Positions 7,077 to 37,424 of a stretch of 64,000 bases of DNA are shown in pieces. The stretch comes from an uncultured Gammaproteobacteria bacterium (GTDB lineage: Bacteria > Pseudomonadota > Gammaproteobacteria > JAKDMP01). The stretch's first letter is position 1; every line of letters starts with the position of its first letter. Where the stretch lies: positions 60,877 through 124,876 of the forward strand of contig CAWJLN010000008.1 of NCBI GenBank assembly GCA_963843735.1. Direction: 5' to 3'. Both the position numbers and the translations under genes were made by a program. The notes beneath the pieces were generated by a model that saw only the letters and a program-made list of their open reading frames with translations, did no database searches and had not been told where the DNA came from.

Positions 7077-7143
7077 CGCCACCCGCCGGGGTTCGGAAGC
7101 AACGGCATGAAAGTGCTTATTTAAGGTGTATTTATGAATTTTG

Positions 7144-7152: not shown

Positions 7153-7204
7153 TCGGCCGTTGCGCGCCTGAGGGCGTCGTCTCCGCATTGAGTGGACAGC
7201 GCCC

Positions 7205-8126
7205 ATGGTGAAACAACGCAGCCTGAAGAACAGCATCCGCGCCACCGGCGTGGGGCTACACACGGGTCAGAAGGTCTTTATGACGCTCAGGCCTGCGGCT
7301 CCCGATACCGGCATCGTGTTTCGCCGGGTGGACTGCAACCCGCCGGTCGAAATTCCCGCCCGGGCTCATCAGGTCGGCGACACCACCCTCGGCACCACCC
7401 TCGTTTCGGGCACGACCCGCATCGCCACGATCGAACACCTGCTCTCGGCGCTTGCCGGTCTCGGTATAGACAACGCCTACGTCGGATCTTTCGGCGCCCG
7501 AAGTCCCGATCATGGACGGCAGCGCCGGCCCCTTCGTCTTTCTGATCCAGTCGGCGGGTATCGAGGAACAGAACGCCCCCAAGCGTTTCATCCGCATCAA
7601 GAAGACCATCGAAGTGCGTCAGGAAGACAAGTGGGCGCGGCTGGAACCCTACGAAGGCTTCAGCGTGGGCGTGGAAATTGACTTTGATCATCCCATTTTC
7701 AAGCAGCACACCCGGCGTAGTCTGGTGGACTTTTCCAGCACCTCCTTCGTCAAGGAAGTAAGCCGCGCGCGCACCTTCGGGTTCCTGCGCGACATCGAGT
7801 ATTTGCGCCGTCACAATCTTACGCTCGGAGCCTCGCTGGATAATGCGATTGCCCTTGACGAATTCAGGATACTCAACGAAGACGGGCTGCGCTACGAAGA
7901 CGAGTTCGTTAAACACAAGATGCTCGATGCGGTCGGCGACCTGTACCTGCTGGGGCGCACCCTGATCGGGCGCTACATGGCGTACAAGCCGGGGCACGGG
8001 CTGAATAACGCCATCCTGCGCAAACTACTGGCCGACGCCAAGGCCTGGGAGGAGGTCACCTTCGAGCATTCGAAGTCCTTGCCTATTTCCTACGCGGGCC
8101 CGGCATGGAGCCCGGTAAGCGGCTGA
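7205..8126 (+). CDS. lpxC: UDP-3-O-acyl-GlcNAc deacetylase LpxC (+1 frameshift near 7484; probably consensus error)
   Basis: TIEHLLSAL in the first frame; [26 protein letters not shown] in the next frame. Confidence 0.93.
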
Positions 8127-8138
8127 TCCTTTCTCGCG

Positions 8139-20234: not shown

Positions 20235-20455
20235 GCTTGCTCACCGTATGGGTGGAGTCCTTACATGGATTGGAAGTGGCGCTTACAATCAGCGCATGCC
20301 GGCAAGCCCGCTCTGCGGCCCGAAGAAACCCCAAATGTCCCAAACAGACTGATGCTTTTATCAATGTCGCGGGCGCCTAGCTTCATCGGCAGCAGCGATG
20401 GCTCCCGGTGTGATCTTCAGGCTGACGGGCAAATAATTTTCCGGTGGCTTGCTGG

Positions 20456-21757: not shown

Positions 21758-21821
21758 TGCGTGGTCATTGATGAGAATGAACAGGAAATTTTCGGAGTCT
21801 GCCTTGTTGTCCCAAAAAACG

Positions 21822-22985
21822 ATGCGCGGCAAAGACGATTTAGCCGTTAACGGTGCGCCGCCAGCCTTCAATGAGCCACTACACGTCGGGCGCCCGAACA
21901 TCGGCAACCGTAAAGAATTTATGCGACGGGTCAACCAGATTCTCGACAATCGCTGGCTGACGAACAACGGTCCGATGGTGCAGGAATTCGAGCGCCGGAT
22001 CGCCGAACATTTGGGTGTCAAGCATTGCGTGGCGATGTGCAACGGCACCATCGCGCTGGAGATCGCCATCCGGGCACTGGGGCTGGATGGCGAAGTGATC
22101 GTGCCGTCATGGACCTTCATCGCCACCGCGCATGCACTGCATTGGCAGGGCATCACGCCGGTATTCGCGGACATTAATCCCGCCACGCACAACCTCAATC
22201 CTGACGTTGTGCGGGACATGATTACGCCACGAACAACCGGAATTATCGGCGTTCACCTCTGGGGACGTGCCGCACCGGTAGATGAGTTGCAGGCCATTGC
22301 CGACGAACACGGTCTGAAACTCATGTTCGACGCTGCACACGCTTTCGGGTGCAGTATGGGTGGACGTGCAATTGGCAATTTCGGAAGTTGCGAAGTCTTC
22401 AGTTTCCATGCCACCAAAATTTTCAATACCATGGAAGGCGGTGCCGTAACCACAGACGATGACGATCTGGCTGAAACCATGCGCTTGATGCGCAACTTCG
22501 GTTTTGCGGGTTATGACAACGTTGTTTATCCGGGGACCAACGGCAAACTACCAGAAATGAATGCCGCCATGGGGCTGGTCAACCTGAACTCACTGCCGGA
22601 TTTTGTTCTCGCCAACAAGGCGCGTCATGAGATTTACAGGCGTATGTTTTCAGGCGTTGACGGCATCCGCTTGCTCACTTACGACTCGGAAAACGACCCC
22701 AACTATCAGTACGTAGTAGTGGAGGTGGATGCGTCCATACGCGACAGGATTGTCGAAATCCTGCATGCTGAAAATATTCTCGCACGTAAGTATTTCTGGC
22801 CAGGATGCCATCGCATGAAGCCTTATGGGGAACTTTTCCCGAACGTCGGTTCGCTTTTGCCTAATACCGAATTGGTAGCAGACCGGGTGATTGTTCTTCC
22901 TACTGGGCCATCGGTGGATCGTGGCGGCGTGGAAGCGATAGCTTCCTTCCTTTTATTCCTCGTGGGGCATCATGATTCCATGTAA
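21822..22985 (+). CDS. DegT/DnrJ/EryC1/StrS sugar aminotransferase (4-amino-4,6-dideoxyhexose type)
   Basis: NGTIAL, DAAHAFG, SFHATKIFNTMEGG PLP-lysine motif; start may lie up to 54 nt upstream. Confidence 0.92.
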   Translation: MRGKDDLAVNGAPPAFNEPLHVGRPNIGNRKEFMRRVNQILDNRWLTNNGPMVQEFERRIAEHLGVKHCVAMCNGTIALEIAIRALGLDGEVIVPSWTFIATAHALHWQGITPVFADINPATHNLNPDVVRDMITPRTTGIIGVHLWGRAAPVDELQAIADEHGLKLMFDAAHAFGCSMGGRAIGNFGSCEVFSFHATKIFNTMEGGAVTTDDDDLAETMRLMRNFGFAGYDNVVYPGTNGKLPEMNAAMGLVNLNSLPDFVLANKARHEIYRRMFSGVDGIRLLTYDSENDPNYQYVVVEVDASIRDRIVEILHAENILARKYFWPGCHRMKPYGELFPNVGSLLPNTELVADRVIVLPTGPSVDRGGVEAIASFLLFLVGHHDSM

Positions 22986-23647
22986 TCCGCATTTCCGGGA
23001 AATTCCGGGTTTTCGAGTGCTCTATATTTTTGGCGCAGGAGGATACCGGGCGTGAGATAGCATGGCTTGCCGAGCAGTCATGGGGTGAGACTGTCGAGAG
23101 AATCTTTGTAGTGGACAAAGAGGAATACTTTGTAGAGTCGGTTAACGAAATTCAGATGATCCTTTTGGCCGATATTAATTCTGTGGCTGATGCCAGGTTT
23201 GTCGTTGCATTGGGCGATCCGTCCCATAGAAGACACGGTGTATCTAGTTGCCTCAGCGTGGGATTGTCGCCTGCCATGCTGGTGCATCCTCGCGCGGAAA
23301 TTTCACGCTGGGTGGATATAGGAAGCGGCAGTGTTATCTGTTCCGGTTCTATCATCACGACAAATGTCGTTGTCGGTCATCATGTACATATTAATCTTGA
23401 TTGTACCGTCAGTCATGACGTGCGTATAGGTGATTTTTCGACTTTGTCGCCCGGAGTGCATGTCACCGGCAACATCCATATCGGGAATAATGTCTCCATA
23501 GGCGCCGGCGCCAACATCGTCAACGGGAAGCCTGGGAAACCTCTGGTGATTGGTGACGGTGCTATCGTGGCTGCTGGAGCCTGCGTGACACAGCCGGTTG
23601 AGCCGGGTGCGATGGTTGCTGGCGTGCCCGCTGTCCGGAAACGCTGA
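22972..23647 (+). CDS. NeuD/PglD/VioB family sugar acetyltransferase (+1 frameshift near 23044)
   Basis: VLYIFGAGG in the 22972 frame joins TGREIAWLA in the 23030 frame; hexapeptide repeats, VSHD, VAGVPA. Confidence 0.85.
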
Positions 23648-24880
23648 ATGCCTAACCTGCTGGATAGTTTATCGGGCTTCAAACCGTCTCCAGGCCGCTT
23701 TCTGCATCTCATCCCCGATGACAAATTCATCGATGTGGCGTGTGGCATATTCGAAGAAGCTTCCCCTGGAGCTCATGATTACCTGATTATCGGACGTGCA
23801 GGCACCCTTCGCCATATCCGCACTTTCCATCCCCACCGGCTGGAAATCGATATGGCACTGAAGCCTGAATTCCTCTCGCTGTTTCCTTCTTATTCAGCCG
23901 TTTTCATCCATTATCTGGCGAATGCCGCCCGGCATATCGTTTTCGCTGCACCTGTTGAAACGCGCTTCATCTGGCTGGGTTGGGGAGCTGATTATTATCA
24001 CTTGATTTGCCCTCGTGATGAGCTGCTGCTGCCTAGAACGCGTGAATGGTTAGCTCGTTCCTTGCGTACAAGAAAGATTCGGAATGTGTTGGAACTGCTG
24101 GAAGAGGGCTTGCGCTCGGCGATGTCCCCGGCTAGAGCTCTGCGATTGCTTGCGCTGCGTGCCAGGCTTCGGGAGTTTGGCCCCGGCTCTCGTGGAGAAA
24201 TCGAACTCGTTAACAGATTCGACGCGATCGCCACCCCGATTGTCGAGGATTTTCGGGCCATGCTTGTCAGATATCCCGAGCTCAGGGTTTCCTTTCTCGA
24301 CTGGAACTACTGGACGGAAGGTTTCTGTGCGCACGACCTGCCGTCGGTGCCCAGCGGTAACAATATCTTGCTTGGCAATAGCGCCACACCGGAAAATAAC
24401 CATCTGGATGCTTTGGAGTTTTTGTCCGGGTTTCCGATAGGCGACCGCAAGGTCATATGTCCTTTGAGTTATGGAGACAGGCAATACGGTAACGCTGTCG
24501 AAAAATATGGGCGAAAGTTGCTGGGGGAACGGTTTGTCCCGCTTAGAAAATACATCGACAGCGGTGCCTATGCGAAGATTCTGGGCAGTTGTTCGATAGT
24601 GATAATGAATCACATCCGGCAACAGGCACTCGGGAACATAGTTCTAGCCCTTTGTTCCGGCGCACATGTTTTTCTAAACGCCAGAAATCCGGTGAATGCG
24701 GCCATGAGGCGTATGGGTGTGGAAGTGGAAGTCATGGAATCGTTGCCCGGTTTTATGAGGGGAGATGAGCCTGCGCTCTTGCCGCAGCGCCTCCATATGA
24801 ACCGGGAAAGGCTCGAAAACCAATATGGCCGATCTTCAATTCTGCGTAGGACACGTATGTTGCTGGATAATCCCGGTTGA
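23648..24880 (+). CDS. WecF-like TDP-Fuc4NAc transferase (GT56-like)
   Basis: DDKF, WGADYY, ILLGNSATPENNHLDAL, PLSYG, RQQALGNI. Confidence 0.8.
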   Translation: MPNLLDSLSGFKPSPGRFLHLIPDDKFIDVACGIFEEASPGAHDYLIIGRAGTLRHIRTFHPHRLEIDMALKPEFLSLFPSYSAVFIHYLANAARHIVFAAPVETRFIWLGWGADYYHLICPRDELLLPRTREWLARSLRTRKIRNVLELLEEGLRSAMSPARALRLLALRARLREFGPGSRGEIELVNRFDAIATPIVEDFRAMLVRYPELRVSFLDWNYWTEGFCAHDLPSVPSGNNILLGNSATPENNHLDALEFLSGFPIGDRKVICPLSYGDRQYGNAVEKYGRKLLGERFVPLRKYIDSGAYAKILGSCSIVIMNHIRQQALGNIVLALCSGAHVFLNARNPVNAAMRRMGVEVEVMESLPGFMRGDEPALLPQRLHMNRERLENQYGRSSILRRTRMLLDNPG

Positions 24881-25096
24881 CCATACGTGATCGCGGAGAA
24901 TATGGAATCGAATCGCCAATGACGCCATGTCTCGCCGGCTGAAGATCTGTAACTTATCTGTCCGAACGAACGCGGTCAGGCATGCGATATGATGAGATCG
25001 GACGGTCGTGATTTCCATTGCCGGTTCTTCTTCCGAGTGAACCATGCTTGAAAAGATGAATTCTGATGCCTCATAGAACGATCAAGCAGTAAATTT

Positions 25097-25999
25097 ATGA
25101 GCAACAAGATAAGCAACGATATGCCGTTCGTTAGCATCATTATTCCGGTTTACAAAGACGAAGCCGGTTTACGCGTTTGTTTGCAAGAAATTGCAAGGCA
25201 GACCTATCCTCGGGAACGTATCGAGGTGATCGCGGTGGACAACAATGAGGTCCCCACGTTAGTGCTTGGAAACGATGACTTCGTTACAGTATGTGTTGTG
25301 CCTTGTACTACGCCAGGCTCATATGCTGCCCGCAATGCTGGAGCTCGCAAGGCAAGGGGCGAGATATTCGCATTTACGGATGCCGACTGCAGGCCATGCG
25401 CCGATTGGCTGGAGCAGGGCGTGCGGGCTCTTCTTGAGGGTGCCGGACGGTGTGTTGTGGGTGGTGAGGTGGAGATGCTTGAGCCGGTGCGATTTACCGG
25501 CGTTTCTCTTTACCAGTACGCGACCGGATTCCACCAGCAGGCGAATATTGAGAACAAGGGTTTTTCCGTTACGGCGAACCTGTTTTGCATGACTGATCAA
25601 TTCGAGCGTATCGGCCCATTCGATGAGAGATTACTGTCCGGGGGCGACAGAGAATGGGCCTGGCGCGCGGCTGCAAAGGGCGTAGGTGTCATTTTCGAGC
25701 GACAAGCTGTGGTGCGTACACCACCTCGGACCACGCTGCGTTCGGCATTTCGTCAGGCGCGCCGGGTAGCTGCCGGTCGCTATTATCTTCGCCGCTATGG
25801 TCTGGATCATCTGGGGGCGAAAGCGATTGTTCCCCATCGCTCGATATGGCAATCATTATTCTGGGTTTTGACGCTGAAGCGGTTATCCCTTCCTGAGAAA
25901 CTGAAGGTGTTTAATGCGGCGGTTCTGATAAAAGGCGTCACAATGTACGAGACACTAAGGCTCAGGCTTGGTATCGGCGGTGAGCTGGAACGGCGGTAA
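25097..25999 (+). CDS. Glycosyltransferase family 2
   Basis: SIIIPVY, VDN, ARNAG, FTDADC, GGDREW. Confidence 0.9.
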   Translation: MSNKISNDMPFVSIIIPVYKDEAGLRVCLQEIARQTYPRERIEVIAVDNNEVPTLVLGNDDFVTVCVVPCTTPGSYAARNAGARKARGEIFAFTDADCRPCADWLEQGVRALLEGAGRCVVGGEVEMLEPVRFTGVSLYQYATGFHQQANIENKGFSVTANLFCMTDQFERIGPFDERLLSGGDREWAWRAAAKGVGVIFERQAVVRTPPRTTLRSAFRQARRVAAGRYYLRRYGLDHLGAKAIVPHRSIWQSLFWVLTLKRLSLPEKLKVFNAAVLIKGVTMYETLRLRLGIGGELERR

Positions 26000-27012
26000 T
26001 GAGCAACCGCACTACTCATCAGAGGGTTTGGTCTCCTGTTGTTACCGGCAGCGGTGTAATGGTGGTGCACAGAATGCTGGAGGCGCACCTGCCAAATTAC
26101 CACGTTGAGCCGCTGTCGCCTTATTGGGGATTGCTGCCGCCGATGCTTGCCGCGCGGCGACGGCACGCCGACGGGATCACGCATTCGCTGCCGGAGCTCG
26201 GGCCGTGGGCGACGCATCGAGATTCTGATCTTGTGCTTACTTTCCACAATTACTATCTCGACGCGGAATTGATGGCGGGTGCGTCGCGTGCCCAGCGGAT
26301 TTTCTACAAAACCGTGATGACGCCCGCCGTCCGCGCTTCGCTGCGGCGCGCCAGATGGGTGACGGCGGTCAGCCGTTACACTGCTGATCTGGTTCGGCGG
26401 CATCATGCGATGGGGGATCGCCTGGTCGTGATCCGCAACGGCGTGGATACCGAACTTTTCAGTCCCGCCGAAGGCGTGGGAGAAGACACGGTCAAGATTC
26501 TGTTCGCGGGCAATCCTACCCGGCGCAAGGGTGTGGAGCACCTGGCGGCGCTGGCACGGGCCCTGCCGGACGATGTGACACTGCAATATACGGTCGGTCT
26601 GCGCAGTGCGGCGACCGGGCGGCCCACGCAATCGGGCGATCTCGTTGCCGTGCCGCGTCGCGGCCACGCCGAGATGCCCGGGCTTTATCGCCAGGCCGAC
26701 ATCCTGTTTTTCCCTACCCGCCGCGAAGGCCTGAGCCTGGTCGTGCTGGAGGCTATGGCCTGCGGGTTGCCCGTCGTCGCAACCCGCTGCTCGTCCATGC
26801 CGGAGCTGGTGGATCACGGCAAGGGTGGCTTCCTGTTCGAGATGGACAATCGCGATGAAATGCTGCGCTGTCTGTCGCGACTTGCGCGCGATCCACTCAT
26901 GCGTGCGGAGATGGGTGCTTACAATCGGGAAAAGGTTCTCGCCGAGTTTCCGCTCGAAAAGATGCTTTCCGGCTACCGCGAGATTTTCGCCGCGAGCGGA
27001 GTGTCGGCTTAG
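25999..27012 (+). CDS. Glycosyltransferase family 4
   Basis: NGVD, RKG, EGLSLVVLEAMACGLPVV. Confidence 0.9.
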   Translation: MSNRTTHQRVWSPVVTGSGVMVVHRMLEAHLPNYHVEPLSPYWGLLPPMLAARRRHADGITHSLPELGPWATHRDSDLVLTFHNYYLDAELMAGASRAQRIFYKTVMTPAVRASLRRARWVTAVSRYTADLVRRHHAMGDRLVVIRNGVDTELFSPAEGVGEDTVKILFAGNPTRRKGVEHLAALARALPDDVTLQYTVGLRSAATGRPTQSGDLVAVPRRGHAEMPGLYRQADILFFPTRREGLSLVVLEAMACGLPVVATRCSSMPELVDHGKGGFLFEMDNRDEMLRCLSRLARDPLMRAEMGAYNREKVLAEFPLEKMLSGYREIFAASGVSA

Positions 27013-27020: not shown

Positions 27021-28166
27021 TTACACGGCTGAGAGGATTTCCAGCAACTGTCGCTCAAACCGCGGCCAGGAGAAACGTTCGGCGAATGCCATGGCGGGGC
27101 GTTCCAGTTCCGCGCGTTGGTTTATCGCCTTGATTACGGCAGCCGCGAATCCGGGGTAATCGCCGGGCGGAACGAGATAGCCGGATTCCCCTTCGGCGAC
27201 GGCATCGGGAATGCCGCCGGCGGCGAAGGCGACGGTGGGAACGCCCCAGGCGGCGGCCTCCAGAGCGACCATGCCGAAGCCTTCCGGGTCGCGCGCATCG
27301 TCGCGTACGGGAAATATATGGACGTCGGCGGCGGGCCAGGCAAGCGCGAGTCCGGCATCGTCGAGCGGGCCGATCAAATGCACGCGATCGGCGATTCCCG
27401 CGGCGGCGGCGGCGCTGCGGATGGCTGCCGCTTCGTCTGCAATGTGTTTGGCGGCATGGCGGGGCACTTCGCCTGCGATGACCAGTTGTGCATCGGGAAT
27501 CTCTGCAAGAATCGCGGGCAGGGCTTGTGCGACAAAAGAGGCAAGACCCTTGCGCGGCGTGAGCCTTCCGGCCGTGAAGAGAATCGCTCCCGCGCTCGAC
27601 AAACCATAGCGCTCGCGGAAGCGCCTTGTCGCCGGTTCGCGCTCGGAAATGCTTTGGGGAACTTCGACGCCAGGATGCAGGATGCGGATACGCGCTTCCG
27701 GCACGCCGGCGGCGCGGGCGAGGCCTGCGGTGTGGCGGCTGTTAACGAGTACGAGGTCCGCGCGGCGGATGGCAGGAACGAACAGGCGTCGGTAGAGCGG
27801 ATGCCGTACGGCGATGTCGAGGCCGTGCAGATAGACTGCATAACGTGCACCGACCTTGCGTGCGGCAAGTCGGGCGATCGGTGCGGTGAGCCCGCTGCCG
27901 GCGAGTACGAGTTGTGGTCGGTAACGTTTGGCGGCCATGCGTGCATTCCGCGCTGCGGCCAGAAGAAACAGTGCTGGGGGCGAGAGCGGGCAGCCGAAGT
28001 ACGCAAGTGCTTGCGTTTCAAGTCGGGCGCCGCGCGGCCCGACGATGATGGTTTTGTAATGCGGACAAAGCGTTTCGGCAACGTGGCCGATCAACCGCTC
28101 CATGCCGCCGATCACGGGTGGCAGGTTGCGCGTGATCAGCAGAACGCGTTCGGTCGCGTCATTCAT
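27021..28166 (-). CDS. Glycosyltransferase family 4 (PimB-like)
   Basis: PPVIGGME, HGLD, PGV, GRLTPRKG, EGFGMVALEAAAWG; start set at MNDATERV because the longer ORF begins inside a repeat. Confidence 0.9.
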   Translation of the reverse strand: MNDATERVLLITRNLPPVIGGMERLIGHVAETLCPHYKTIIVGPRGARLETQALAYFGCPLSPPALFLLAAARNARMAAKRYRPQLVLAGSGLTAPIARLAARKVGARYAVYLHGLDIAVRHPLYRRLFVPAIRRADLVLVNSRHTAGLARAAGVPEARIRILHPGVEVPQSISEREPATRRFRERYGLSSAGAILFTAGRLTPRKGLASFVAQALPAILAEIPDAQLVIAGEVPRHAAKHIADEAAAIRSAAAAAGIADRVHLIGPLDDAGLALAWPAADVHIFPVRDDARDPEGFGMVALEAAAWGVPTVAFAAGGIPDAVAEGESGYLVPPGDYPGFAAAVIKAINQRAELERPAMAFAERFSWPRFERQLLEILSAV

Positions 28167-28171
28167 TTGTT

Positions 28172-28318
28172 CCCTCTCCCCTTGCGGGAGAGGGGTAGGG
28201 TGAGGGGTATCGCCGCTGCGCGGCGACAAGAAGTTTTCTCACCCTCACCCCAACCCTCTCCCGTCGAGGGAGAGGGGGTAAGAAGGATGGGCTCTCCCGT
28301 CGAGGGAGAGGGAGAAAG
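28172..28318. repeat. Family B inverted doublet plus a partial third hairpin
   Basis: ccctctccccttgcgggagaggggtagggtgagggg ... ccctcaccccaaccctctcccgtcgagggagaggg ... ctctcccgtcgagggagaggg. Confidence 0.88.
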
Positions 28319-28331
28319 AAGTTCGGCCGCG

Positions 28332-29206
28332 TCATTCACGGCCGGTGTTGGCGTAGAGGAGATTAGCGATCTGTTCGGCGATCAGGCCCATCAGGAACAC
28401 CAGACCGGCGACGATGAACAGGAGTGCGCTCATGTTGGTGAACTGGTGGCGGGTGGAATAGGTATAGATGTAATAGCCGAGGCCGAAGGCGAAGAAGACC
28501 GCGGCCGCTGGCGTGAACACCTTGAGCGGCGAATAGAGCGTTGCGACCTTGAGGATGATCAGCAGGAAGCGACCGCCGTCGCGCAGCGGCCGGATGTGGC
28601 TGGAGGCGCCGCCGCGGGCGCGTACGTCAACCGGCACGAAGCGCACGGGGAAGCCCGCGCGGAGGAAGGCCATGGTGCTCGTGGTCGGATAGGAGAATCC
28701 GTTCGGCAGCAGGAAGAGAATTTCCAGGAAACGTGTAGCGGCGCACGGCGCGGAAGCCGGAGGTGAGATCGCTGATGCGATGGCCCGTGACCAGGCTCGC
28801 GAGTTTGTTGTAGAGGCCGTTGGCGAAACGTCGCCCGCGATTGGCGTGCGCACTGGCCGAGCGTGCTCCGACGGCCATGACGTAGTTGTCGCCGAGCGCG
28901 GCGACCAGTTTGGCGACTTCCGCGGGGCGATGCTGGCCGTCGGCATCCATGAAGACCAGAATTTTCCGTGCGCGGCGCGGGCGCCGTCCTTGATCGCCGC
29001 GCCGTTGCCGATGGATACGGGTGCGTCACCACGCGGGTCGCGCCGGCTGCGCGCGCCCGTTCGGCGGTGTCGTCGCGGGAGCCGTCGTCCACCACCAGGA
29101 TTTCCGCCTGCGGATACAGTTCGCGCAGTTCGGTGACGACGCCGGGCAGACTCTCGGCCTCATCGCGCGCGGGCAGGATGATGGAAAGGTCCAGGGGTTG
29201 ACTCAT
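28332..29206 (-). CDS. GT2 polyprenol-phosphate sugar synthase-like protein (DPM1-like); about 3 frameshifts
   Basis: VVDDGSRD, GNGAAIK, MDADGQH, DLTSGFRA, LPNGFSYPTTST spread over three frames; two C-terminal TMs. Confidence 0.8.
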
Positions 29207-29245
29207 GATGGTGGATCCACAATTCAGTGCGTGATTTTCTCACAG

Positions 29246-29300
29246 AATCCCCCTCCCGCTCCCCCTTCCTCGCAGGCGCGAGCAAGGGGAAGGGAAGAAA
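29246..29300. repeat. Palindromic repeat family C
   Basis: aatccccctcccgctcccccttcc-hairpin-caagggg; related copies at ~32830, 34969, 35118, 40137, 40212. Confidence 0.78.
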
Positions 29301-29342
29301 GCTCTCCAGCCTGCATGTCTTCGCGAAAGAGGGGGTAAAGGA

Positions 29343-31382
29343 TTAAGGTGCGGCTTCGGCCTGCGCTAGCTGTCGCTGCATGCGCTCGACGACCATGCTC
29401 AGCTTGCCGAGCTTGTTGAGTTTTTCCACGCGGGCGAGCATTTCCTTCGCAAGGGCGAAATCGCGGTCGTCGAGCGCGACGTTGAACACGTTGACCTGAA
29501 ACTGCGCAACGCCGCGCACCGCGTTGGCTGCCTGCAGGAGCTTGGGCGCGCTCTTTGCACGTTGGGCCGGCGTGTCGTAGCCGATGAAGTTGGCCTCGGT
29601 GACGAGCACGTTGGCGTAGTTCATTCCGAGTTCGGTAATCCGCGGACTTTTGTCTATCGCGCGGAACAGGCGCTGAATTTCGCCCGGCTGGATGCGGCAT
29701 TGATGCCGCGTGTAGCAGCCGACGAGCGCCTCCAGCGCGTTGACGTCGGAGACCGTGAACGGGCGCTCGCCCACGGCCTTGACCATGCCGTCGAACCAGG
29801 CGTTCGGCACGGGTTGATCGGTTTGCGCGGCGAGGAGAATCATCGCGACCCAGGGATCGAGCCCCGCGTTTTTTACCTGCGTCGCCTTCTGGGCGTCGGC
29901 AAAGGCGGGCTGCATGTATTGGCGATCGCCGCCGAGCGCAAGGTTGGTCTCGATGCGCGCGAGCAGATACGTGCCGCGCGGCGATTGCGGATGGTGGCTC
30001 GCCTCCGCGTGTGCGAGCGCGAGGTTGCTGCGCCAGTTCCAGGCGCGCGCCGCCGTCGTCAGGCCGAGTGCAATCACGGCTAGCGTTGCGGCGACGGCGA
30101 GCAATGTACGCAGGCGCGGCGCGCGCGCATACAGCAGAACCAGCGCCGCAACCGCGAGGATGACGCCCCAGTCGGCGAGATAGACGCGATGCTCATAGAC
30201 CAGTTCCAGCGGAAAGACGGTGGATTCGAGCACCTGTGCGGCGAAGAACCAGACGATGCCGAGCGCGACCAGCGGCCGGCGCCGGCGCAGCCACCAGGCG
30301 AGCACGAGCAGCGCCGCGATCAGCAGGAAGGAAAGCAGCGTGGTCGGCGGCGAGAGCAGCCCCGTCGAGATCGCGATATCGTCGTGATGCAGGGCCATTG
30401 CCGACAGGCGTGGCACGAGAATCAGGCCGAGATAAAAGATGACCACGCGGCCCTCGGTCAGCACTCGCTCGGGCAAGTTGAATTCGCGGGTGACGAAGCC
30501 GTGGTCGTTCAATACGCCTGGAAGCGTTTGGTACAAACCGATGGCGGCGGGCAGAAAAAGCAGGACCGCGTACAGCCACCAGATTTTTCGTGCAGTGCGT
30601 TCGTCGCTATCCCTGAAGCGGAATACGAAGACTTCGAGCAGCAGGGTAAAAAGCGGCAGCAATACGCCCGTTTCCTTGCACAAGGCGCCGATCGCGGTAA
30701 ACACGGCCACCACCGCCGCGATCAGAATCAGCTTCGGCCAGGTAGTGGCCGTGAACCGCTCGCGCAGATGCACATAGAGCCACAGGCCGGCGAGCGTGAA
30801 CAGGGTGGCGAGAATGGTTTCGCGCTGTACCGCGTAGAGAATCGGCGTCAGGTTCATCGGATGCAGTGCCCAGGCGGCACCGATCGCGAGCGCTATCCAT
30901 TCCACGCGCAGGCGGCTCGTTTCAGGCGAGAGGCGGCGACGCCAGGCAAGCAGCAGGGCGCGCGTGAAGCCGGTCAGGAGCACCACGGCAATCAGATGCA
31001 GGACGAGGTTGATGGTCTTGAACGTGTGCGGATGCAGGCCGAAGAAATAGCGCTCAAGCGCGAAGCTCAAGAGCGAGAGCGGACGTCCGAGCGGGCCCGC
31101 ATTGAACGACCACATCGCGTGCCATAGATGCGCCCACGAAAACCCGTGCATGACGAGGTCGCCGTTGTTGACGATATTGCCGTAGTCGTCAAGCAGCCAG
31201 CCACCGGTGAGCCCGGACATGTACACCAGCCAGGTTGCGACCAGTACGAGGACGACAAGCGCCCAGCGGCCGTAAGGCCCCTCGGGCCAGCGCACGATGT
31301 CGAGTGGGCTGCCGCCGGTTTGCGGCGGTGGGGGCGGGGCGGCGGGCGTCTTGCGGCGTTTCGTGTTCTTGCGTCGGCTCAT
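29343..31382 (-). CDS. TMTC-like membrane glycosyltransferase, paralogue 3 (no repeat insertion)
   Basis: TM1 then WLLDDYGNIVNN, RPLS, HPMN..YAVQR, KE, ERVLTEGRV, EHRVYL, W+helical C-domain. Confidence 0.75.
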   Translation of the reverse strand: MSRRKNTKRRKTPAAPPPPPQTGGSPLDIVRWPEGPYGRWALVVLVLVATWLVYMSGLTGGWLLDDYGNIVNNGDLVMHGFSWAHLWHAMWSFNAGPLGRPLSLLSFALERYFFGLHPHTFKTINLVLHLIAVVLLTGFTRALLLAWRRRLSPETSRLRVEWIALAIGAAWALHPMNLTPILYAVQRETILATLFTLAGLWLYVHLRERFTATTWPKLILIAAVVAVFTAIGALCKETGVLLPLFTLLLEVFVFRFRDSDERTARKIWWLYAVLLFLPAAIGLYQTLPGVLNDHGFVTREFNLPERVLTEGRVVIFYLGLILVPRLSAMALHHDDIAISTGLLSPPTTLLSFLLIAALLVLAWWLRRRRPLVALGIVWFFAAQVLESTVFPLELVYEHRVYLADWGVILAVAALVLLYARAPRLRTLLAVAATLAVIALGLTTAARAWNWRSNLALAHAEASHHPQSPRGTYLLARIETNLALGGDRQYMQPAFADAQKATQVKNAGLDPWVAMILLAAQTDQPVPNAWFDGMVKAVGERPFTVSDVNALEALVGCYTRHQCRIQPGEIQRLFRAIDKSPRITELGMNYANVLVTEANFIGYDTPAQRAKSAPKLLQAANAVRGVAQFQVNVFNVALDDRDFALAKEMLARVEKLNKLGKLSMVVERMQRQLAQAEAAP

Positions 31383-33694
31383 GGTTTACTGCTGTCGGCG
31401 GGTGGGTAAAGGCGGTTGATGAGTTGATCCAGTTTGCGGATGTCGGGATTGCTCATTCCCAGACGGTTGAGTCGGCGCAGCGCCGCAAGTTCCCGGCGTG
31501 CGCCGGCAGCGTCTCCGCTGGCGGCGAGACAGACGCCGAGACTGAAATGATAACCGGGTGAGCCGGGATTGTGCTTCAGCAAGGCCCTGAAAATGCCCGC
31601 CGCCGCCTTGGGTTGGCCGAGCGCATTGAGCAGATAGTTGCCGTAAATCGCCATGACGTAATGGTTTGGCGCGGGGTGGCGCAGCGCCGCCGCGAATACC
31701 GTGATCATGGCACCGGACGGGAAAACGCAAGGGTTCTTTTCGCGGGTCGCGCAATGTCCCAGCGCGTTCAGCGCCGAAATATCCTGGGTATTCGGCGGTT
31801 GCGCATGCAGTCTGTCCGCCATCGCCCGGAACCAGTCGAGACGCATGGGTTCGCCTTGATCATGCGCGAGGAGAACCAGCCCGGAGAGGGCGATGATGCT
31901 TTGTCCCGGCACCCGGTTGGCCGTCTCCAGCGCCTTGCGCGCCGCGGGGGCGAACTTGGGATTGTTGCGGGCGATGATCAGGAGCGCGCGCCCGAAGGCA
32001 TAAGTTGCGCGCGGGGAATCCGGGTGCGTGCGCGCGTCAATCGCCGTGTGGATCAGGGGGTTCGACCAGTTCAGCGAGCGCAACGCAAGGCCCGCGCCGC
32101 AGAGCACGATGATGGCAATCACGGCGGTGATCCGTGCCGCACGCAGCCTTTCGCGGGGGCGGGCGAGAAGCAGAATTCCGAACACCGCAAAAAACAGTCC
32201 CAGCGAAGGCAGATATTCACGATGCTCGAATACCAGCTCCAGCGGGAAGATGCTTGCGGTGAGCGCCTGGCCGGTGAGAAACCACAGGATGCCGAAAGCG
32301 ATCAGCGGCCGGCGCCGCGCGCAGGCGAAGCCGGCGCCGGCAAGCGCGGTGATCCCCGCCCAGGCGGGAAGCGTCGTCCACGGCGAGAAGAGACCGCGCG
32401 AGATCGGGAAGGCGTCGTGGTAAAGCGTCATCGCGTGGATGTTCGGCACCAACGTCCAGTAGAGGTAATGCCAGATCACGCGCCCTTCGGTGAGCAGGCG
32501 TTCGCCGAACGTGAAGTCGCGCGCGGCCCAGGCCTGCGGTGAAAGCACGCCTGGCAGCAGCCAGGCGAGTCCAAGCACAAGCGGCAGCAGCAGAAACACC
32601 GCGAAGTACGCAATACTTGTCCACGCCACCGTTCCCCGGGTTTCTTTTATTCCGCTGGAGGGTGCAAATTTCATGTTCCCTCTCCCATCTTCTCCCTCTC
32701 CACGAAGTGGAGAGGGCCGGGGTGAGGCGCGGGAGAGGGTTAGGGTGAGGGGTAAAAGCCATTTGCGCTGCATCGGTTGTTCTTCACCCTCACCCCAACC
32801 CTCTCCCGTCAAGGGAGAGGGTGAAGATTCTCTCCCCCTTGCCGACGCAGGCGGGAAGGGGGAGCGGGAGGGGGATTCCTTCCCGGTTTCTTGCATTCCG
32901 TTGTGGAAACGGAAAAACACCCACTCGATTACGAGGGCGTAGAGCAGCGTGAGCGCGCCCGATTCCTTCGTCAAAACCGACAGCGGCGTCAACACCAGTG
33001 CCGCCAGAAGCAGCAGGACAACGGCTCCGAACCGGCGCCGATGCTCGAACAGCCATTTGCGCCCCACGATGAAGACAATCAGCGCGAGCAGCGTGAAAGT
33101 TGCGGCGAGCGAGGTCATGCGCTGCACCGTGTACAGCACCGCCGTCAGATTGATCGGCGCGAGCAACCAGGCCGCCGCCACCGCCAGCGCCGTCATATTT
33201 TCGGAAACCGTGATTGAAAGCGGGTAGGAGCGGCGGTCCCCGCCGCGATGGGAGGCATCCGCTTGCATGTGATCGCGACGGGGACCGTCGCTCCTACCTG
33301 TGAAACGGCGCCGCGGCAGCAATAAGGCACCGTCCTTGAGGCGTGCATATTCGCGGAGCAGCAGACGCAACAGCAGAAACACCAGCACGCCGTTCAGGAG
33401 ATGGATCGCGAGATTGACGATCTTCATCGGCCGCGCGTACATGCCGTTGAAGTAATCGTTCAGCGCAAAGCTGGCCATCGCGATCGGACGATCCAGCGTG
33501 CCGACCGAGGGCATGCTGAGCGCGGCGCGCATCATCGCGCCGGGCGTCAGCCGGTGGATTTTCAGCGCCGGGTTCTCGACGATGTTCGGGTAATCATCGA
33601 ACATGAATCCGCCGTGCGTACCCGGCCAATAGGCGAGCGCCGTCGCCGCGAGCACCACGGCCAAACCAAGCCAGGGCAAGCAACGGCGGCTCAT
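31379..33694 (-). CDS. TMTC-like membrane glycosyltransferase, paralogue 2 (two in-frame repeat insertions)
   Basis: FMFDDYPNIVENP, RPIA, YTVQRM, KESG, ERLLTEGRV, EHREYLPS; ATGA overlaps at both ends. Confidence 0.75.
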   Translation of the reverse strand: MSRRCLPWLGLAVVLAATALAYWPGTHGGFMFDDYPNIVENPALKIHRLTPGAMMRAALSMPSVGTLDRPIAMASFALNDYFNGMYARPMKIVNLAIHLLNGVLVFLLLRLLLREYARLKDGALLLPRRRFTGRSDGPRRDHMQADASHRGGDRRSYPLSITVSENMTALAVAAAWLLAPINLTAVLYTVQRMTSLAATFTLLALIVFIVGRKWLFEHRRRFGAVVLLLLAALVLTPLSVLTKESGALTLLYALVIEWVFFRFHNGMQETGKESPSRSPFPPASARGRESSPSPLTGEGWGEGEEQPMQRKWLLPLTLTLSRASPRPSPLRGEGEDGRGNMKFAPSSGIKETRGTVAWTSIAYFAVFLLLPLVLGLAWLLPGVLSPQAWAARDFTFGERLLTEGRVIWHYLYWTLVPNIHAMTLYHDAFPISRGLFSPWTTLPAWAGITALAGAGFACARRRPLIAFGILWFLTGQALTASIFPLELVFEHREYLPSLGLFFAVFGILLLARPRERLRAARITAVIAIIVLCGAGLALRSLNWSNPLIHTAIDARTHPDSPRATYAFGRALLIIARNNPKFAPAARKALETANRVPGQSIIALSGLVLLAHDQGEPMRLDWFRAMADRLHAQPPNTQDISALNALGHCATREKNPCVFPSGAMITVFAAALRHPAPNHYVMAIYGNYLLNALGQPKAAAGIFRALLKHNPGSPGYHFSLGVCLAASGDAAGARRELAALRRLNRLGMSNPDIRKLDQLINRLYPPADSSKP
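32678..32878. repeat. Family B/C repeat cluster inside paralogue 2
   Basis: Nested family B copies, an inverted family B copy and a family C copy; encodes ESPSRSPFP..SPSPLTGEGWGEG..PLTLTLSR..PSPLRGEG. Confidence 0.88.
33224..33297. repeat. GTAG-REP doublet (REPIN) inside paralogue 2
   Basis: gtaggagcggcggtccccgccgcgat-22 nt-atcgcgacggggaccgtcgctcctac; same REP as flanks the RAYT. Confidence 0.9.
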
Positions 33695-35943
33695 GGTTTG
33701 TGCGCCGCTTTGGATGCGCGCAATTGTTTTTCGAGAGCGGCACGTACGCGCTTGAAGGACTCGCTGTACCAACCGCTGCGCTCGAGCCACCAGCGATGCA
33801 GACGCGCCATGTTCCAGCCGTGCGCTTGCGGCTTCTCAAGCCTCCGGTATTCGTCGAGCAGCTTCAGGCCGAGCCGCGGCTTGTGCGCCACATACATGTC
33901 GGCGGCGGTGACAAGTGCCGTATCCGGTTTCGGCACGAGCGGCAGCGATTGCGCAAAGGCATCGAAGGCTTCTCCGGCTTTGCCCTGACGCAGCAGCAAA
34001 CGCCCGCGCAGTACCAGGAATTCCTGGCGCAGCGCCGGGTACGGATTGAAGTGCGGGTTGGCGAGCGCCGCCGTCGGAATCGCCTGCAATCCGGCGGTGG
34101 TAAGCGGTGGGCAGGGAGCGCTCTCGATGCGTTTGGCGAGCCGCGCGACGCCATTGTAGATAAGGCCCGAGCCTGCCCGGGAATGCGCCGCGGCATAGAC
34201 CGTCGCCACGAGATCGGCGGGTCTCGCCTGCCGCAGCTCGCAGGCGACGTTGAGCGCGCTGAGCGCGATGCTGATGTTGTCCGGTTGTGCGCGCGTCGCG
34301 AGGCGCAGTTTCTTGAGCGCGAGGTCCGGATGTCCGGCGGCCGTAAGTCCTTCGGATCCCCACACCTGTGCGCGCGTGGAATGGGGATTCAGCCGCATCC
34401 AGACGAGTGAAAGTTCCGCACCCTTGCCCCAGAGATCGGCGCGCAATGCGGTGAACGCGAGAAGCAGTACAAGTGCGAACGTTGCGATGCCAGCACGCAG
34501 CGCGCGGGTGCCGGGTCCGCGCAGTATCCACCATGCGAGCGGCCAGAAAAGAAGCGCCGCCGGGAGATAGTTGCGATGTTCGTAAAAGAGTTCCAGCGGA
34601 ATAGTGGTGGATTCCAGCAACTGCCCGGCGAGATAAAACAGGATTGCCGCGGCGAGCACGGGCAGGCGCCGGCGCACGGCGAATGCGAAGGCGATCAACG
34701 CGGCGACGATCAGGATGGCGGGCAGTGTCGTCCACGGATCGAACAGGCCGTGCGAAACCGCGACGCTCGTGAACAAACCCTGTGTTCCGGCATGCGGAAT
34801 CACGAGGAGGTACAGATAATCCACCAGCACCCGCCCTTCGGTGAGCAGGCGTTCGAGGATGGTGAAATTGCGGTAGGGCAGTGAAGTCAGTGCGTGACGA
34901 AGCGGGTAGAGGACGTAGGCGAACAGGGCTAACGAAGGCAGCCACAGAAAAATCGCCCGGAACGCAAGAAATCCCCCTCCAACTCCCCCTTCCCGCCTGC
35001 GGCGGCAAAGGGGAGGGCAGGATTTCTTTTCCCCTTCCCGCCTGCGGCGGCAAAGGGGAGGGCAGGATTTCTTTCCCCCTTCCCGCCTGCGGCGGCAAAG
35101 GGGAGGGCAGGATTTTCCTCCCCCTTGCCCGTCTTCGGGGAAGGGGGAGCGGGAGGGGGATTCTTCTTGCCCCCTCTCCCCTTGCGGGAGAGGGTTGGGG
35201 TGAGGGGTATTGCCGCGCGGCGCCGATTGTTTCTCACCCTCACCCCCGCCCTCTCCCGTCAAGGGAGAGGGGGAAGAAGACAACACCGTCCATTCCAGCA
35301 CGAGCGCGAGTAGCGGCAGCAGCGCCGCGTTTTCTTTCGACAAGGTGCCGAAAAAAGTGCCGCCGACGATGCCGACAATCATTAACGTGTAAGCGGAGCG
35401 CGTGTGCCCCGCATTCAGCCGCGCGCGTCCCCAGACGTAGAGGTTCAAGCCCGCGAACACGAACAGCGCGGCGAGGATCGTCATGCGCTGCACCACGTAA
35501 AGCGTGGTCGAGACGAAGAGCGGATGCGCCAGCCACAATCCGGCGCCGAGTATGCCGACCCACATCGCGCGCCGTGCGTCGAGTCCGCGCGCCAGCGAAA
35601 GTTGGCGCAGCAGCAGTGCGAGCAATGCGCCCGACAGAAGATGCAGCAGCAGATTGCTGAGCTTGAATGGCCAGGGGTTTGCCGGCCAGTTGTGCGCGTC
35701 CATTAGAAAGCTTGCAAGCGCGAGCGGGCGCCCGGTCGGCCCGGCGATGCCGCTGGTGAGATAGCTCGCGAGCGTCACCGGATTGTCCACCGGTCCATAG
35801 GCGCCGAGCGCCGGCAGATTCGCCCAGTCGTCGAGCAGGAACGGCCCGGAGAGGCCGGGGTAATAGGCGGCGGCTACGAGACCGAGCAGGCCGAGCAACG
35901 CCAGCCAGGGCAGGAACGGGCGCAGGCGGAGCGGAATACGCAT
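33691..35943 (-). CDS. TMTC-like membrane glycosyltransferase, paralogue 1 (~104-aa in-frame repeat insertion)
   Basis: FLLDDWANL, GRPLA, HPLF..YVVQRM, KENA, ERLLTEGRV, EHRNYLP. Confidence 0.75.
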   Translation of the reverse strand: MRIPLRLRPFLPWLALLGLLGLVAAAYYPGLSGPFLLDDWANLPALGAYGPVDNPVTLASYLTSGIAGPTGRPLALASFLMDAHNWPANPWPFKLSNLLLHLLSGALLALLLRQLSLARGLDARRAMWVGILGAGLWLAHPLFVSTTLYVVQRMTILAALFVFAGLNLYVWGRARLNAGHTRSAYTLMIVGIVGGTFFGTLSKENAALLPLLALVLEWTVLSSSPSPLTGEGGGEGEKQSAPRGNTPHPNPLPQGERGQEESPSRSPFPEDGQGGGKSCPPLCRRRREGGKKSCPPLCRRRREGEKKSCPPLCRRRREGGVGGGFLAFRAIFLWLPSLALFAYVLYPLRHALTSLPYRNFTILERLLTEGRVLVDYLYLLVIPHAGTQGLFTSVAVSHGLFDPWTTLPAILIVAALIAFAFAVRRRLPVLAAAILFYLAGQLLESTTIPLELFYEHRNYLPAALLFWPLAWWILRGPGTRALRAGIATFALVLLLAFTALRADLWGKGAELSLVWMRLNPHSTRAQVWGSEGLTAAGHPDLALKKLRLATRAQPDNISIALSALNVACELRQARPADLVATVYAAAHSRAGSGLIYNGVARLAKRIESAPCPPLTTAGLQAIPTAALANPHFNPYPALRQEFLVLRGRLLLRQGKAGEAFDAFAQSLPLVPKPDTALVTAADMYVAHKPRLGLKLLDEYRRLEKPQAHGWNMARLHRWWLERSGWYSESFKRVRAALEKQLRASKAAHKP
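34969..35280. repeat. Family C tandem array (3 x 45 bp) plus family C and family B copies inside paralogue 1
   Basis: ccccttcccgcctgcggcggcaaaggggagggcaggattt starts at 34986, 35031 and 35076; family B doublet at 35172-35275. Confidence 0.92.
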
Positions 35944-36002
35944 GGCGGCATTCTACGGGGTCGGGAAATCGCGGCGGGACCTGCGTGATTTATCGTGCCG
36001 AT

Positions 36003-36026
36003 AAAAAAGGCCCGCCGAAGCGGGCC
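36003..36026 (-). terminator. Intrinsic terminator of pilA
   Basis: Minus strand GGCCCGC-TTCG-GCGGGCC-TTTTTT. Confidence 0.85.
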
Positions 36027-36069
36027 CAGTACGCGTGTCCGCCGCATCGCGGCGGGAGGAGAACTCGGT

Positions 36070-36549
36070 TCAGCCGGTGTGGCGGCAGTTGGACGGTACC
36101 AAGCTGTAGACGCTGGCATTATCCACTTTGCAGATCCAGGTGATGGAACCGCCTGTGGCGACCGGCGAAAGAATCAGGTAATGGCCATCGAGCTTTTTGT
36201 TGGCCTCGCAAGTGACGCCTGGGCCAACGGTAGCTCCGTTGGTGCAGAAGGTGGCCTTAATCTGGCCGGTGGACATCACTTCGGTGGTCTTGACGTATTT
36301 GCCGATGATGCTTCCGGCCGGAGCGGCTCCCGCCGTGGCATTGCCATCCGGCAAGGTTCCATTGCTGTTGTAGTAGTCAACAATGGTGGGCTCGAGACTG
36401 CTGGCGAGCGAGAACGCGCCGGCTGTCTGCGCACGAGCGGTGTAGTTGAGATAAAGGGGAATCGCAATCGCCGCCAGGATGGCGATGATCGCGACCACGA
36501 TCATCAATTCGATCAGGGTAAAACCCTGTTGCTTGTGTCTGCTGTTCAT
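36070..36549 (-). CDS. pilA: Type IVa major pilin
   Basis: MNSRHKQQG|FTLIELMIVVAIIAILAAIAIPLY; four Cys including the C-terminal WIC..PSNC D-region. Confidence 0.95.
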   Translation of the reverse strand: MNSRHKQQGFTLIELMIVVAIIAILAAIAIPLYLNYTARAQTAGAFSLASSLEPTIVDYYNSNGTLPDGNATAGAAPAGSIIGKYVKTTEVMSTGQIKATFCTNGATVGPGVTCEANKKLDGHYLILSPVATGGSITWICKVDNASVYSLVPSNCRHTG

Positions 36550-36938: not shown

Positions 36939-37424
36939 TTAAAGCCAGGCCGCATCCCAGAACGGGTAATCTCCAATACTTGGCACGAGTCCGGCCCGCA
37001 GTGGGTTTGCAATGACGTAACGCGCCATTTTGCGAAGGTCTTCATCGCGCCGCGCGGCATGATCGTGGAATCCGGCTTGCCAGACACGACGGCCCGGGCG
37101 TCCTGCACACAGGTTCAGGCGGCGGGCTGTATAGCCTTTGACGGACCTCATCAGTTCCGAAAGCGTATGTTTCGCGTCGAGCGTAACAAGCCAGTGGAGA
37201 TGGTCGGGCATTACAACCCATGCCAGCGATTGGGTCCGGCCGGTCCGGTGATGATGCGCAAGTGCGCGGGCTACAACGCAGCCGGCGTCGAAGTCGGCGA
37301 ACAACGGTTGGCGATCATGGGTGACGGCGGTGAGTAGATAGGCTTGTTCGGGACCCGAAAAGCGTCCGCGGCGAAGCGCGTGTCCGTGCCACGGTGGATT
37401 GCGCGCAGGCATGTAAGCCGCCAT
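36939..37424 (-). mobile_element. REP-associated tyrosine transposase (RAYT, HUH/Y1)
   Basis: LRRGRFS, MPDHLHWL (HUH), WQAGFHDH, YVIANPLRAGLV; REPs on both sides. Confidence 0.93.

Follow-up and report, generated by a model that had tools for sequence, protein, structure and literature searches.

The window analysed here is a stretch of 64,000 nucleotides (contig CAWJLN010000008.1, positions 60,877 to 124,876; G+C about 63%) from an uncultured Gammaproteobacteria bacterium whose genome assembly, labeled G000, has 13 contigs, 2.08 Mb and a completeness of 75.7%. Our subject is a cassette on its minus strand: the major pilin gene pilA, three paralogous membrane protein genes, called here A, B and C, and the gene of a family 2 glycosyltransferase (GT2). 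A first, sequence-only reading had proposed a pilin glycosylation system, and this is still the best reading, given the GT-C glycosyltransferase fold predicted for the paralogues, their linkage to pilA and the type of the GT2. The three proteins appear to be remote homologues of TfpW, a pilin glycosyltransferase of Pseudomonas aeruginosa, and the cassette is likely to be a TfpW-type module with a different sugar supply, one that O-glycosylates PilA in the periplasm from a lipid-phosphate sugar. Its components are the following, where TM stands for transmembrane and TPR for tetratricopeptide repeat.

36070..36549, minus strand: pilA, type IVa major pilin, 159 amino acids (Pfam Pilin 4e-13, N_methyl 1e-11).
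36008..36027, minus strand: intrinsic-terminator-like hairpin in the spacer between pilA and A, found by consensus scan, 8 pairs (7 of them G-C) followed by TTTTTT.
33691..35943, minus strand: paralogue A, predicted GT-C membrane domain and periplasmic helical tail, 750 amino acids, member of the 'A-type' clade.
31379..33694, minus strand: paralogue B, predicted GT-C domain and TPR, 771 amino acids from its ATG, member of the 'B-type' clade (Pfam TPR_19 2.3e-6, residues 691-743).
29343..31382, minus strand: paralogue C, predicted GT-C domain and TPR, 679 amino acids, free of inserts and chosen for modelling.
28332..29206, minus strand: GT2 of the polyprenyl-phosphate glycosyltransferase type, with two C-terminal TM helices (Pfam Glycos_transf_2 on its N-terminal piece).

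The coordinates of the open reading frames (ORFs) and the junction sequences agree with the gene positions, the strand and the two ATGA overlaps first reported: on the minus strand, the A/B and B/C junctions both read CCATGAGCC, the start ATG overlapping the preceding stop. The gap between pilA and A is 126 nucleotides long. The predicted RNA fold of this spacer contains the same hairpin, and the z-score of the whole fold against shuffled sequences is just -0.49; only the local hairpin is thus retained, as a consensus match. In translation, PilA has the prepilin leader MNSRHKQQG followed by FTLIE, and ends in SNCRHTG; the mature protein contains 16 Thr and 11 Ser among 150 residues, or 18%, a raw count given here without a baseline.

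The similarity between A, B and C is far above chance. BLASTP aligns A with C in two blocks at 36-41% identity (E 2e-22 and 2e-21), B with C at 35% (E 1e-54), and A with B at 32% (E 2e-43): these are indeed the three divergent paralogues of the sequence-only reading, and they are the only members of the family in the genome. The motifs it had listed, DD, RP, Y.VQR, KE, ER.LTEGRV and EHR.YL, are present in all three translations, and fall on conserved columns of an alignment of 42 family members, denoted A1. The invariant or near-invariant columns are D65, D66, R100, P101, Q186, R187, K236, E237, R306, E310, R312, E397, H398, R399 and Y401, and the DD pair is kept in 42 of 42 sequences. No model of Pfam or NCBIfam matches the membrane domain of A, B, C or the 42 family members. 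TPR families of Pfam match B and 24 of the 42; no TPR model of Pfam matches the tail of A, and this tail is not alignable with those of B and C. Two cysteines of the A-type tail, at residues 568 and 611 of A, are invariant in 28 of 28 sequences (alignment A3), a conservation pattern that suggests a disulfide.

The AlphaFold2 model of C, computed with A1 as input alignment, reaches a pLDDT of 89.9 and a pTM of 0.89. It has 11 TM helices, a basic N-terminus on the inside, residues D65 and D66 in the first outside loop, and a tail that is all-helical from about residue 450. A VIA-align search of this model against 48,161 chains ranks first, over residues 31-465 approximately, the yeast protein O-mannosyltransferase Pmt1/Pmt2 (6p2r_B, Z 17.5, root-mean-square deviation 4.9, 347 aligned). 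GT-C enzymes also fill the following top ranks: AglB (3waj_A, Z 16.5), ALG12 (15.7), Pmt4 (9e61_A, 15.3), ArnT (5f15_A, 14.4), STT3 (14.4) and PglB (14.2), with AftA, AftB and AftD also present; TPR proteins match residues 450-679 approximately. Helical models can score a Z of about 14 from the arrangement of their helices alone, and the GT-C fold is accepted here because the top ranks are held by one class of enzymes with related functions, whose matches span the whole domain. The model thus predicts for C both the GT-C fold and the helical periplasmic tail proposed at the outset, the latter being also visible in the TPR matches. Other searches returned less: Foldseek, with the whole model of C against the PDB, has no match at E<=0.001 and otherwise lists TPR proteins and weak rows for STT3, PglB and AglB; when PDB chains are searched by sequence, both C by itself (best E 1.3) and the family profile find TPR matches only. 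A complex prediction for residues 1-505 of A and 1-455 of C scored 0.00 in both runs, made without controls, and speaks neither for nor against a hetero-oligomer of the Pmt1/Pmt2 kind.

By sequence, the closest known relative of the family is TfpW. Its description (bioRxiv 10.1101/2020.04.19.049825) presents it as the pilin D-arabinofuranosyltransferase/oligosaccharyltransferase of P. aeruginosa Pa5196 and P. paraeruginosa PA7, a protein of 646 amino acids whose gene lies directly downstream of pilA. It is given 11 predicted TM helices with the N-terminus in the cytoplasm, the motifs DDX (periplasmic loop 1) and YX6PFX7P (loop 4), and a C-terminal, periplasmic TPR domain; by itself it polymerises and transfers the sugar, with a donor supplied by the D-arabinofuranose (D-Araf) pathway (DprE1/DprE2, DPPR synthase), it has been reconstituted in a laboratory strain that does not glycosylate, and its homologues, including that of P. 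indica, show 29.9-47.1% identity (same source).

We reached TfpW-type proteins by searching with four distant members of the family as seeds (A2); one of these, from genome G009, is pilin-adjacent. Protein P0299, with 646 amino acids and the NCBI name 'hypothetical protein [Pseudomonas aeruginosa group]', carries YVWDDS and YLLQSFLPFQSINVSHP, the latter an exact instance of YX6PFX7P; protein P0286, from Pseudomonas indica, has 619 amino acids and contains YLRMIVWPFSDINPMHP. The two are 32% identical, within the range given for TfpW homologues. From its length, its organism label and these two motifs, we take P0299 to be TfpW. The A1 profile aligns with P0299 with an hhalign probability of 98.8% (E 7.7e-17) over 396 columns, 16-448 of A1 against 18-449, at 26% identity, and the elements DD, RPL, HP, KE, Y......P and HER are in register across the whole membrane domain. 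The family hidden Markov model (HMM) finds P0299 at 80 bits (hmmsearch, E 7e-27 at Z=1). A tree of 54 proteins sets three TfpW-type rows apart from the 51 family rows, on a branch of length 1.07; because of this long branch, the sequences place A, B and C in a distinct clade of remote TfpW homologues. TfpW had first been set aside as a different kind of enzyme, a view that the common build and the hhalign result overturn.

The family is large. At E<=0.001 it matches 23,464 cluster representatives, some surely through TPR alone, and at E<=1e-30 it matches 4,637. Among 400 sampled genomes of the class, 150 have a match at E<=1e-5 (the unpublished G047, G149 and G303 included), and about 124, a count taken from a table, at E<=1e-13. 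Three tandem genes are found in 7 of 8 genomes of the same taxonomic family, the genes of the remaining one, G007, being split over two short contigs; leaving aside the unpublished G003 and G005, the count is 5 of 6, again with G007 as the other.

Linkage to pilA, the next element of the sequence-only reading, holds up in a survey of gene neighbourhoods based on two samples. The first consists of 20 loci from relatives, with assessable upstream content in 17: a gene with a prepilin motif lies directly upstream in 9 (L031, L035, L036, L038, L039, L040, L042, L045 and L048), and an orthologous GT2 directly downstream in 11. The second consists of 75 loci in named genomes, obtained from the best 80 of 644 confirmed hits to a B/C-type pattern, and covers Rhodanobacter, Dyella, Lysobacter, Luteibacter, Halothiobacillus, Acidiferrobacterales, Burkholderiales and others; cultured carriers of the cassette are among them, such as isolates of Rhodanobacter, Dyella, Luteibacter, Lysobacter dokdonensis and Halothiobacillus sp. 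DCM-1. A family ORF of at least 400 amino acids is present in 73 of these 75. Sixty loci have at least 700 nucleotides of upstream DNA, and 50 of them contain, within that distance and on the same strand, the end of an ORF with a prepilin motif; a GT2 lies within 1.5 kb downstream in 26 of 65. Distant members of the family are pilin-linked as well, those of G009 (L048) and G349 (L134). The loci are kin and were picked by similarity, and their context fractions are descriptive, with no statistical test attached. Chance adjacency to a pilin is well under 1%, because the prepilin motif matches only 10 of the 11,964 ORFs of the genome, about one per 200 kb.

As to the GT2, intact orthologues in other genomes have 286-331 amino acids and two hydrophobic C-terminal helices. 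In NCBIfam they score best with AglJ, dolichyl-phosphate hexose transferase, PpgS, ArnC and PgfS, and the pieces of the gene in the window match AglJ and PpgS. These matches identify the class, that of polyprenyl-phosphate glycosyltransferases, and do not fix the sugar; the polyprenol-phosphate-sugar synthase first proposed is recognisable in this resemblance.

Several points weigh against a pilin glycosylation system. For the clade of A, B and C, pilin glycosylation is a prediction made from genes. P0299 is presumed to be TfpW (AAM52060.1 or its PA7 equivalent) from its features and not from its accession; the BLASTP match of A to P0299 is weak (E 5e-5, 145 residues), and of the motif YX6PFX7P only YX6P is retained: the invariant Y317 and P324 correspond in the alignment to the Y and the first P of P0299, and the PF...P part is missing (C reads YLGLILVPRLSAMALHH). 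The NCBIfam scores of the GT2 all fall well short of the curated thresholds (for AglJ, 112-122 bits against 325). No flippase of GtrA type (PF04138, E<=0.001) is found in the cassette or in the 75.7%-complete genome, where other flippases could serve. The orthologous A-B-C triplet of G002 is not beside pilA and has a GH8 gene upstream; that of G004, also away from pilA, has an M13 peptidase gene upstream and no GT2 after it. In this assembly, finally, the GT2 gene is spread over three frames, with changes near 29004-29020, 28956-28967 and 28724-28736, and A and B carry repeat inserts.

Because the triplets of G002 and G004 are found elsewhere, linkage to the pilin is not obligatory, and one may ask whether the enzymes act on something other than the major pilin: periplasmic or surface proteins, lipopolysaccharide (LPS) or a periplasmic glycan, in which case the flank of pilA would be a hot spot of variable surface-glycan genes. 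In eight of the 17 relatives' loci the 2.5 kb upstream contain no pilin (L032, L033, L037, L041, L043, L044, L046 and L047), and TPR tails are able to bind many substrates. Besides, a sugar island of 7 kb and low G+C, with a Wzx-type flippase and four more glycosyltransferases, adjoins the cassette. We regard such a target as unlikely: the 50 of 60 loci with a pilin immediately upstream are to be set against one pilin-motif ORF per 200 kb or so, the order pilS-pilR-pilA followed by GT-C genes recurs in L031, L036 and L039, and TfpW, the only characterised homologue, modifies pilin according to its description cited above.

The family nonetheless has members in contexts other than pilA, as two sets without a visible pilin indicate. 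Three tandem genes for much more distant members of 607-621 amino acids lie at G343:C1:875447-881855 (L133, L136, L137), and two tandem genes for members of about 845 amino acids, also much more distant, at G020:C1:20056-23954 (L041); no pilin was seen in the DNA examined around either set.

The neighbours of the cassette on the side of the GT2 are the following.

28324..28344, minus strand: terminator-like hairpin at the GT2 stop codon, from consensus scan alone, a possible end of the operon.
27021..28229, minus strand: family 4 glycosyltransferase (GT4), 3' of the GT2 (Pfam Glyco_trans_1_4 2e-29, Glycos_transf_1 3e-27).

The GT4 may belong to the glycosylation system; in the relative's locus L036, too, a GT4 comes after the GT2 and a methyltransferase. 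The island itself is on the plus strand, at 20444-27012, between pilB and the cassette, with a G+C of 0.53 at 22-26 kb. It contains the Wzx-type flippase gene (20444-21757), a DegT aminotransferase, a hexapeptide acyltransferase, a GT56-like enzyme, a GT2 and a GT4; no initiating phosphoglycosyltransferase or Wzy_C ligase was seen in it, nor any Wzy_C protein in the window. The island may feed either the pilin system or LPS. Further away, pilB, pilC and pilD are located at 15.5-19.3 kb of the window, and the segment 19300-20440, between pilB and the Wzx-type gene, has only short ORFs of 118-140 amino acids, two of which were scanned and had no Pfam match.

The disrupted GT2 gene and the inserts raise another issue, namely that the cassette may be decaying in this genome, with the GT2 a pseudogene and A and B disrupted by repeats. 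The GT2 gene has three frame changes in 875 bp, and the inserts are the following.

34954..35292, minus strand: in-frame insert of 339 nucleotides in A, made of dispersed palindromic repeats with three tandem KSCPPLCRRRREGG units among them, in a loop predicted to be cytoplasmic.
33191..33361, minus strand: first repeat-derived in-frame insert in B, 171 nucleotides, in the TM2-TM3 loop by alignment to C (a BLASTP gap against C).
32615..32911, minus strand: second repeat-derived in-frame insert in B, 297 nucleotides, in the same loop as the insert of A.

The insert of A has 147 blastn matches in the genome, on 11 of 13 contigs, and tblastn matches to residues 218-268 of A are spread across the genome; the first insert of B has 18 matches on 7 contigs, and the second, 94 on 11 of 13. 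A Y1 transposase gene next to pilA, of the type associated with repetitive extragenic palindromic (REP) sequences, would also fit decay. We nevertheless hold decay to be very improbable. All inserts preserve the frame and are free of stops, and they map, by alignment to the model of C, to the loops after TM2 and TM6, predicted to face the cytoplasm; relatives of C with 780-815 amino acids also have extra sequence before the same point. As for the GT2, two soil-metagenome runs yielded short-read contigs that span 28598-28978 and 28662-28846, a range that takes in the frame changes other than the one near 29004-29020. Contigs X2 and X3 lack one base at 28736, and X3 has a single additional base behind 28962; this undoes exactly two of the three shifts, and the sequences are otherwise identical. 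The depth of these contigs is 2-4, they may share a sample with the assembly, and the runs contain at most 0.19 of the sampled words. Essential genes of the window are out of frame too: ftsZ has two frame changes and lpxC one (regions 5900-8130 and 16354-17559 are affected), and pilC has an in-frame TGA at 17263-17265, which suggests indel and base errors of the assembly instead of gene decay. Since these three genes are also disrupted, and since the contigs lack two of the shifts, the frame changes of the GT2 are probably assembly errors.

Some observations on the repeats can be added. The unit is palindromic, dispersed and about 100-120 nucleotides long, with translations like SPSPLTGEGWGEGE or TPHPNPLPQGERG, and another copy lies at 28230-28330. 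The extra sequence in the longer relatives of C is at the same loop. The transposase gene, IS200-like (Pfam Y1_Tnp 4e-9), lies at 36939-37424 on the minus strand, immediately upstream of pilA, a place taken by pilS-pilR in relatives, and is a candidate for the REP-associated transposase of this repeat family.

Why should a glycosylation system for one pilin need three paralogous enzymes? In the tree, A, B and C fall into three clades, each of six orthologues drawn from six genomes and each supported at SH-aLRT 100. Because these are separate orthologous clades, the triplication is older than the genera concerned, and such ancient and separately conserved paralogues are not redundant. Of the two genes present in loci of Pseudoxanthomonas, Rhodanobacter, Halothiobacillus and a metagenome-assembled genome of Burkholderiales, one clusters with the A-type (support 98) and the other with the B-type (support 99): pairs of A-type and B-type genes are thus found in Lysobacterales, Halothiobacillus and Burkholderiales loci. 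When whole clusters of the 75 named-genome loci are typed with clade HMMs, 25 read AB, 9 BA, 21 B alone, 5 BB, 4 BC and 2 C alone. That the A-type never occurs alone was rejected as a conclusion, the loci having been seeded with a B/C-type pattern. After the pilins, A precedes B in loci of Lysobacterales type, and B precedes A in those of Halothiobacillus and Burkholderiales type (L109, L077, L056, L071, L088, L092, L106, L110), the latter usually having a GT2 directly downstream.

The three paralogues could act in sequence on the pilin, one attaching the first sugar and the others extending or polymerising the chain, as TfpW does with D-Araf. GT-C enzymes include chain extenders, such as those of the Emb and Aft families, and the fold search with C returned AftA, AftB and AftD. 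There is a single GT2, hence probably a single donor, in the operon, and TfpW alone both polymerises and transfers, according to its preprint. On the other side, the 21 whole loci with a single B-type gene, and the 16 loci in which a lone family gene accompanies a lone pilin gene, imply that one enzyme is enough; a single B-type enzyme evidently suffices in many genomes. Among the 60 loci, 19 have two enzymes and two pilins, as against 16 loci with two enzymes and one pilin. The frequent two-enzyme, two-pilin pattern suggests specialisation by substrate or by site, which it fits better than an obligatory chain of steps. We rate a sequential chain as rather unlikely, and the most likely arrangement is one in which A, B and C would serve different sites or linkages.

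The preferred reading, glycosylation of PilA by the cassette, can be put together as follows. On the cytoplasmic face of the membrane, the GT2 (28332-29206) would load a monosaccharide, hexose or N-acetylhexosamine (HexNAc), from a nucleotide sugar onto undecaprenyl phosphate, and a flippase would move the lipid-phosphate sugar to the periplasm. There, A, B and C would use the DD of their first periplasmic loop to glycosylate Ser or Thr residues of PilA, the pilin being held in the inner membrane, with their divergent C-terminal TPR tails presumably holding the protein substrate. The hairpin between pilA and A would pass only part of the transcripts on to the enzyme genes; arrangements of this kind downstream of major pilin genes are described, in a paper on TfpY, as a broadly conserved means of setting the levels of accessory genes (PMC11841053). 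By analogy with TfpW, glycosylation may shield the pilus from phages, a reasonable consequence, and a role in evading phages or predators is conceivable; two sources give the phage-shielding precedent for TfpW (bioRxiv 10.1101/150227; PMC11841053).

If pilins are the targets, then glycosylation from lipid-phosphate monosaccharides would be common in bacteria of soil and water, and no oddity of Pseudomonas. It would have a bearing on the masking of phage receptors, on surface attachment and on the antigenic diversity of pili, and GT-C/TPR protein O-glycosyltransferases such as TMTC would gain a bacterial model that is tractable. A wider conjecture, which we put forward as possible but doubtful, is that environmental Gamma- and Betaproteobacteria glycosylate their pilins mainly through this GT2-coupled clade, and not through the arabinose-using TfpW clade: a bacterial counterpart of eukaryotic O-mannosylation by PMT and TMTC that acts on folded protein, with deeply conserved A-type and B-type enzymes specific for a site or a pilin, their divergent TPR tails reading different pilin surfaces. 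If true, the combination of paralogues in a strain would set the surface chemistry of its pili.

We now compare the cassette with known systems. TMTC1-4 (GT105), the O-mannosyltransferases of the animal endoplasmic reticulum, have, as described in PMC7801869, 11 TM helices, a conserved DD after TM1, lumenal TPRs, a DUF1736 loop between TM7 and TM8, and a conserved Arg motif (AERV) before TM10. The family shares with TMTC the 11 helices, the DD in the TM1-TM2 loop, the C-terminal TPR array, an Arg-containing motif before the last helices (AERV there, EHR.Y here), and the expected use of a lipid-phosphate monosaccharide donor; the acceptors are cadherin domains in TMTC, and presumably pilin here. 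The DUF1736 model (PF08409) has no match in A, B and C (E<=0.01), in the 42 family members (E<=1) or in the genome (E<=10), and the label 'TMTC-like' of the sequence-only reading is thus not borne out as membership. In a comparison made from the published description of the features of TMTC, TMTC appears as a look-alike in architecture. Some family members carry the automatic JGI label 'protein O-mannosyl-transferase', which we treat as a lead only.

Proteins of the PMT family O-glycosylate Ser and Thr of proteins from a polyprenyl-phosphate sugar made by a GT2, as actinobacterial Pmt does with Ppm1. The PMT enzymes (GT39; yeast Pmt1/Pmt2 and Pmt4) give the best structural match, at fold level only (6p2r_B), and no PMT or PMT_2 domain of Pfam is matched by A, B, C or the 42 family members. 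They differ in having a lumenal MIR beta-trefoil domain, in place of which the all-helical model of C has its TPR tail.

The pairing of a GT2 with a GT-C enzyme is also comparable to the Pgf system of Streptococcus mutans (PgfS). In three-component periplasmic glycosylation (GtrA/GtrB/Gtr-type GT-C; ArnC/ArnT), the gene of the GT2 lipid-phosphate sugar synthase lies beside that of the GT-C enzyme, which uses its product on the far side of the membrane from the cytoplasm (PMC11127046). Here too, a GtrB-like GT2 with C-terminal TM helices adjoins a GT-C gene; the acceptor is O-antigen or lipid A in those systems, and presumably protein in this one.

The pilin enzymes PglL, TfpO and TfpM are Wzy_C O-oligosaccharyltransferases that transfer a whole oligosaccharide from undecaprenyl diphosphate (Und-PP), with a fold and a mechanism unrelated to those of the GT-C family considered here. 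Like this family, they are encoded after pilA and presumably yield a glycosylated pilin. No Wzy_C domain is found in A, B or C, and the only match in the genome, on contig C1, scores 19.5 bits, below the cut-off.

There remains TfpW itself. A limited literature search returned only TfpW papers for the GT2-coupled clade. The likeness extends from the locus to the protein: in both cases a gene directly downstream of pilA encodes a protein of about 650 amino acids with 11 TM helices and its N-terminus inside, a DD(X) in periplasmic loop 1 and a C-terminal periplasmic TPR domain. The differences lie in gene number, one gene with TfpX there against one to three tandem paralogues without TfpX here, and in the donor, which comes from the D-Araf pathway there, whereas here the operon has a GT2 of the polyprenyl-phosphate hexose type. 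The DprE1-type ALO domain (PF04030) has no match in the 75.7%-complete genome; it has matches in 24 of the 400 sampled genomes, and in six loci examined (L125-L130) no family gene or pilin lies beside the DprE1-like gene. The GT2-coupled clade is an uncharacterised and very widespread sister clade of TfpW with conserved multiple paralogues, and TfpW already sets the precedent for enzymes of this kind.

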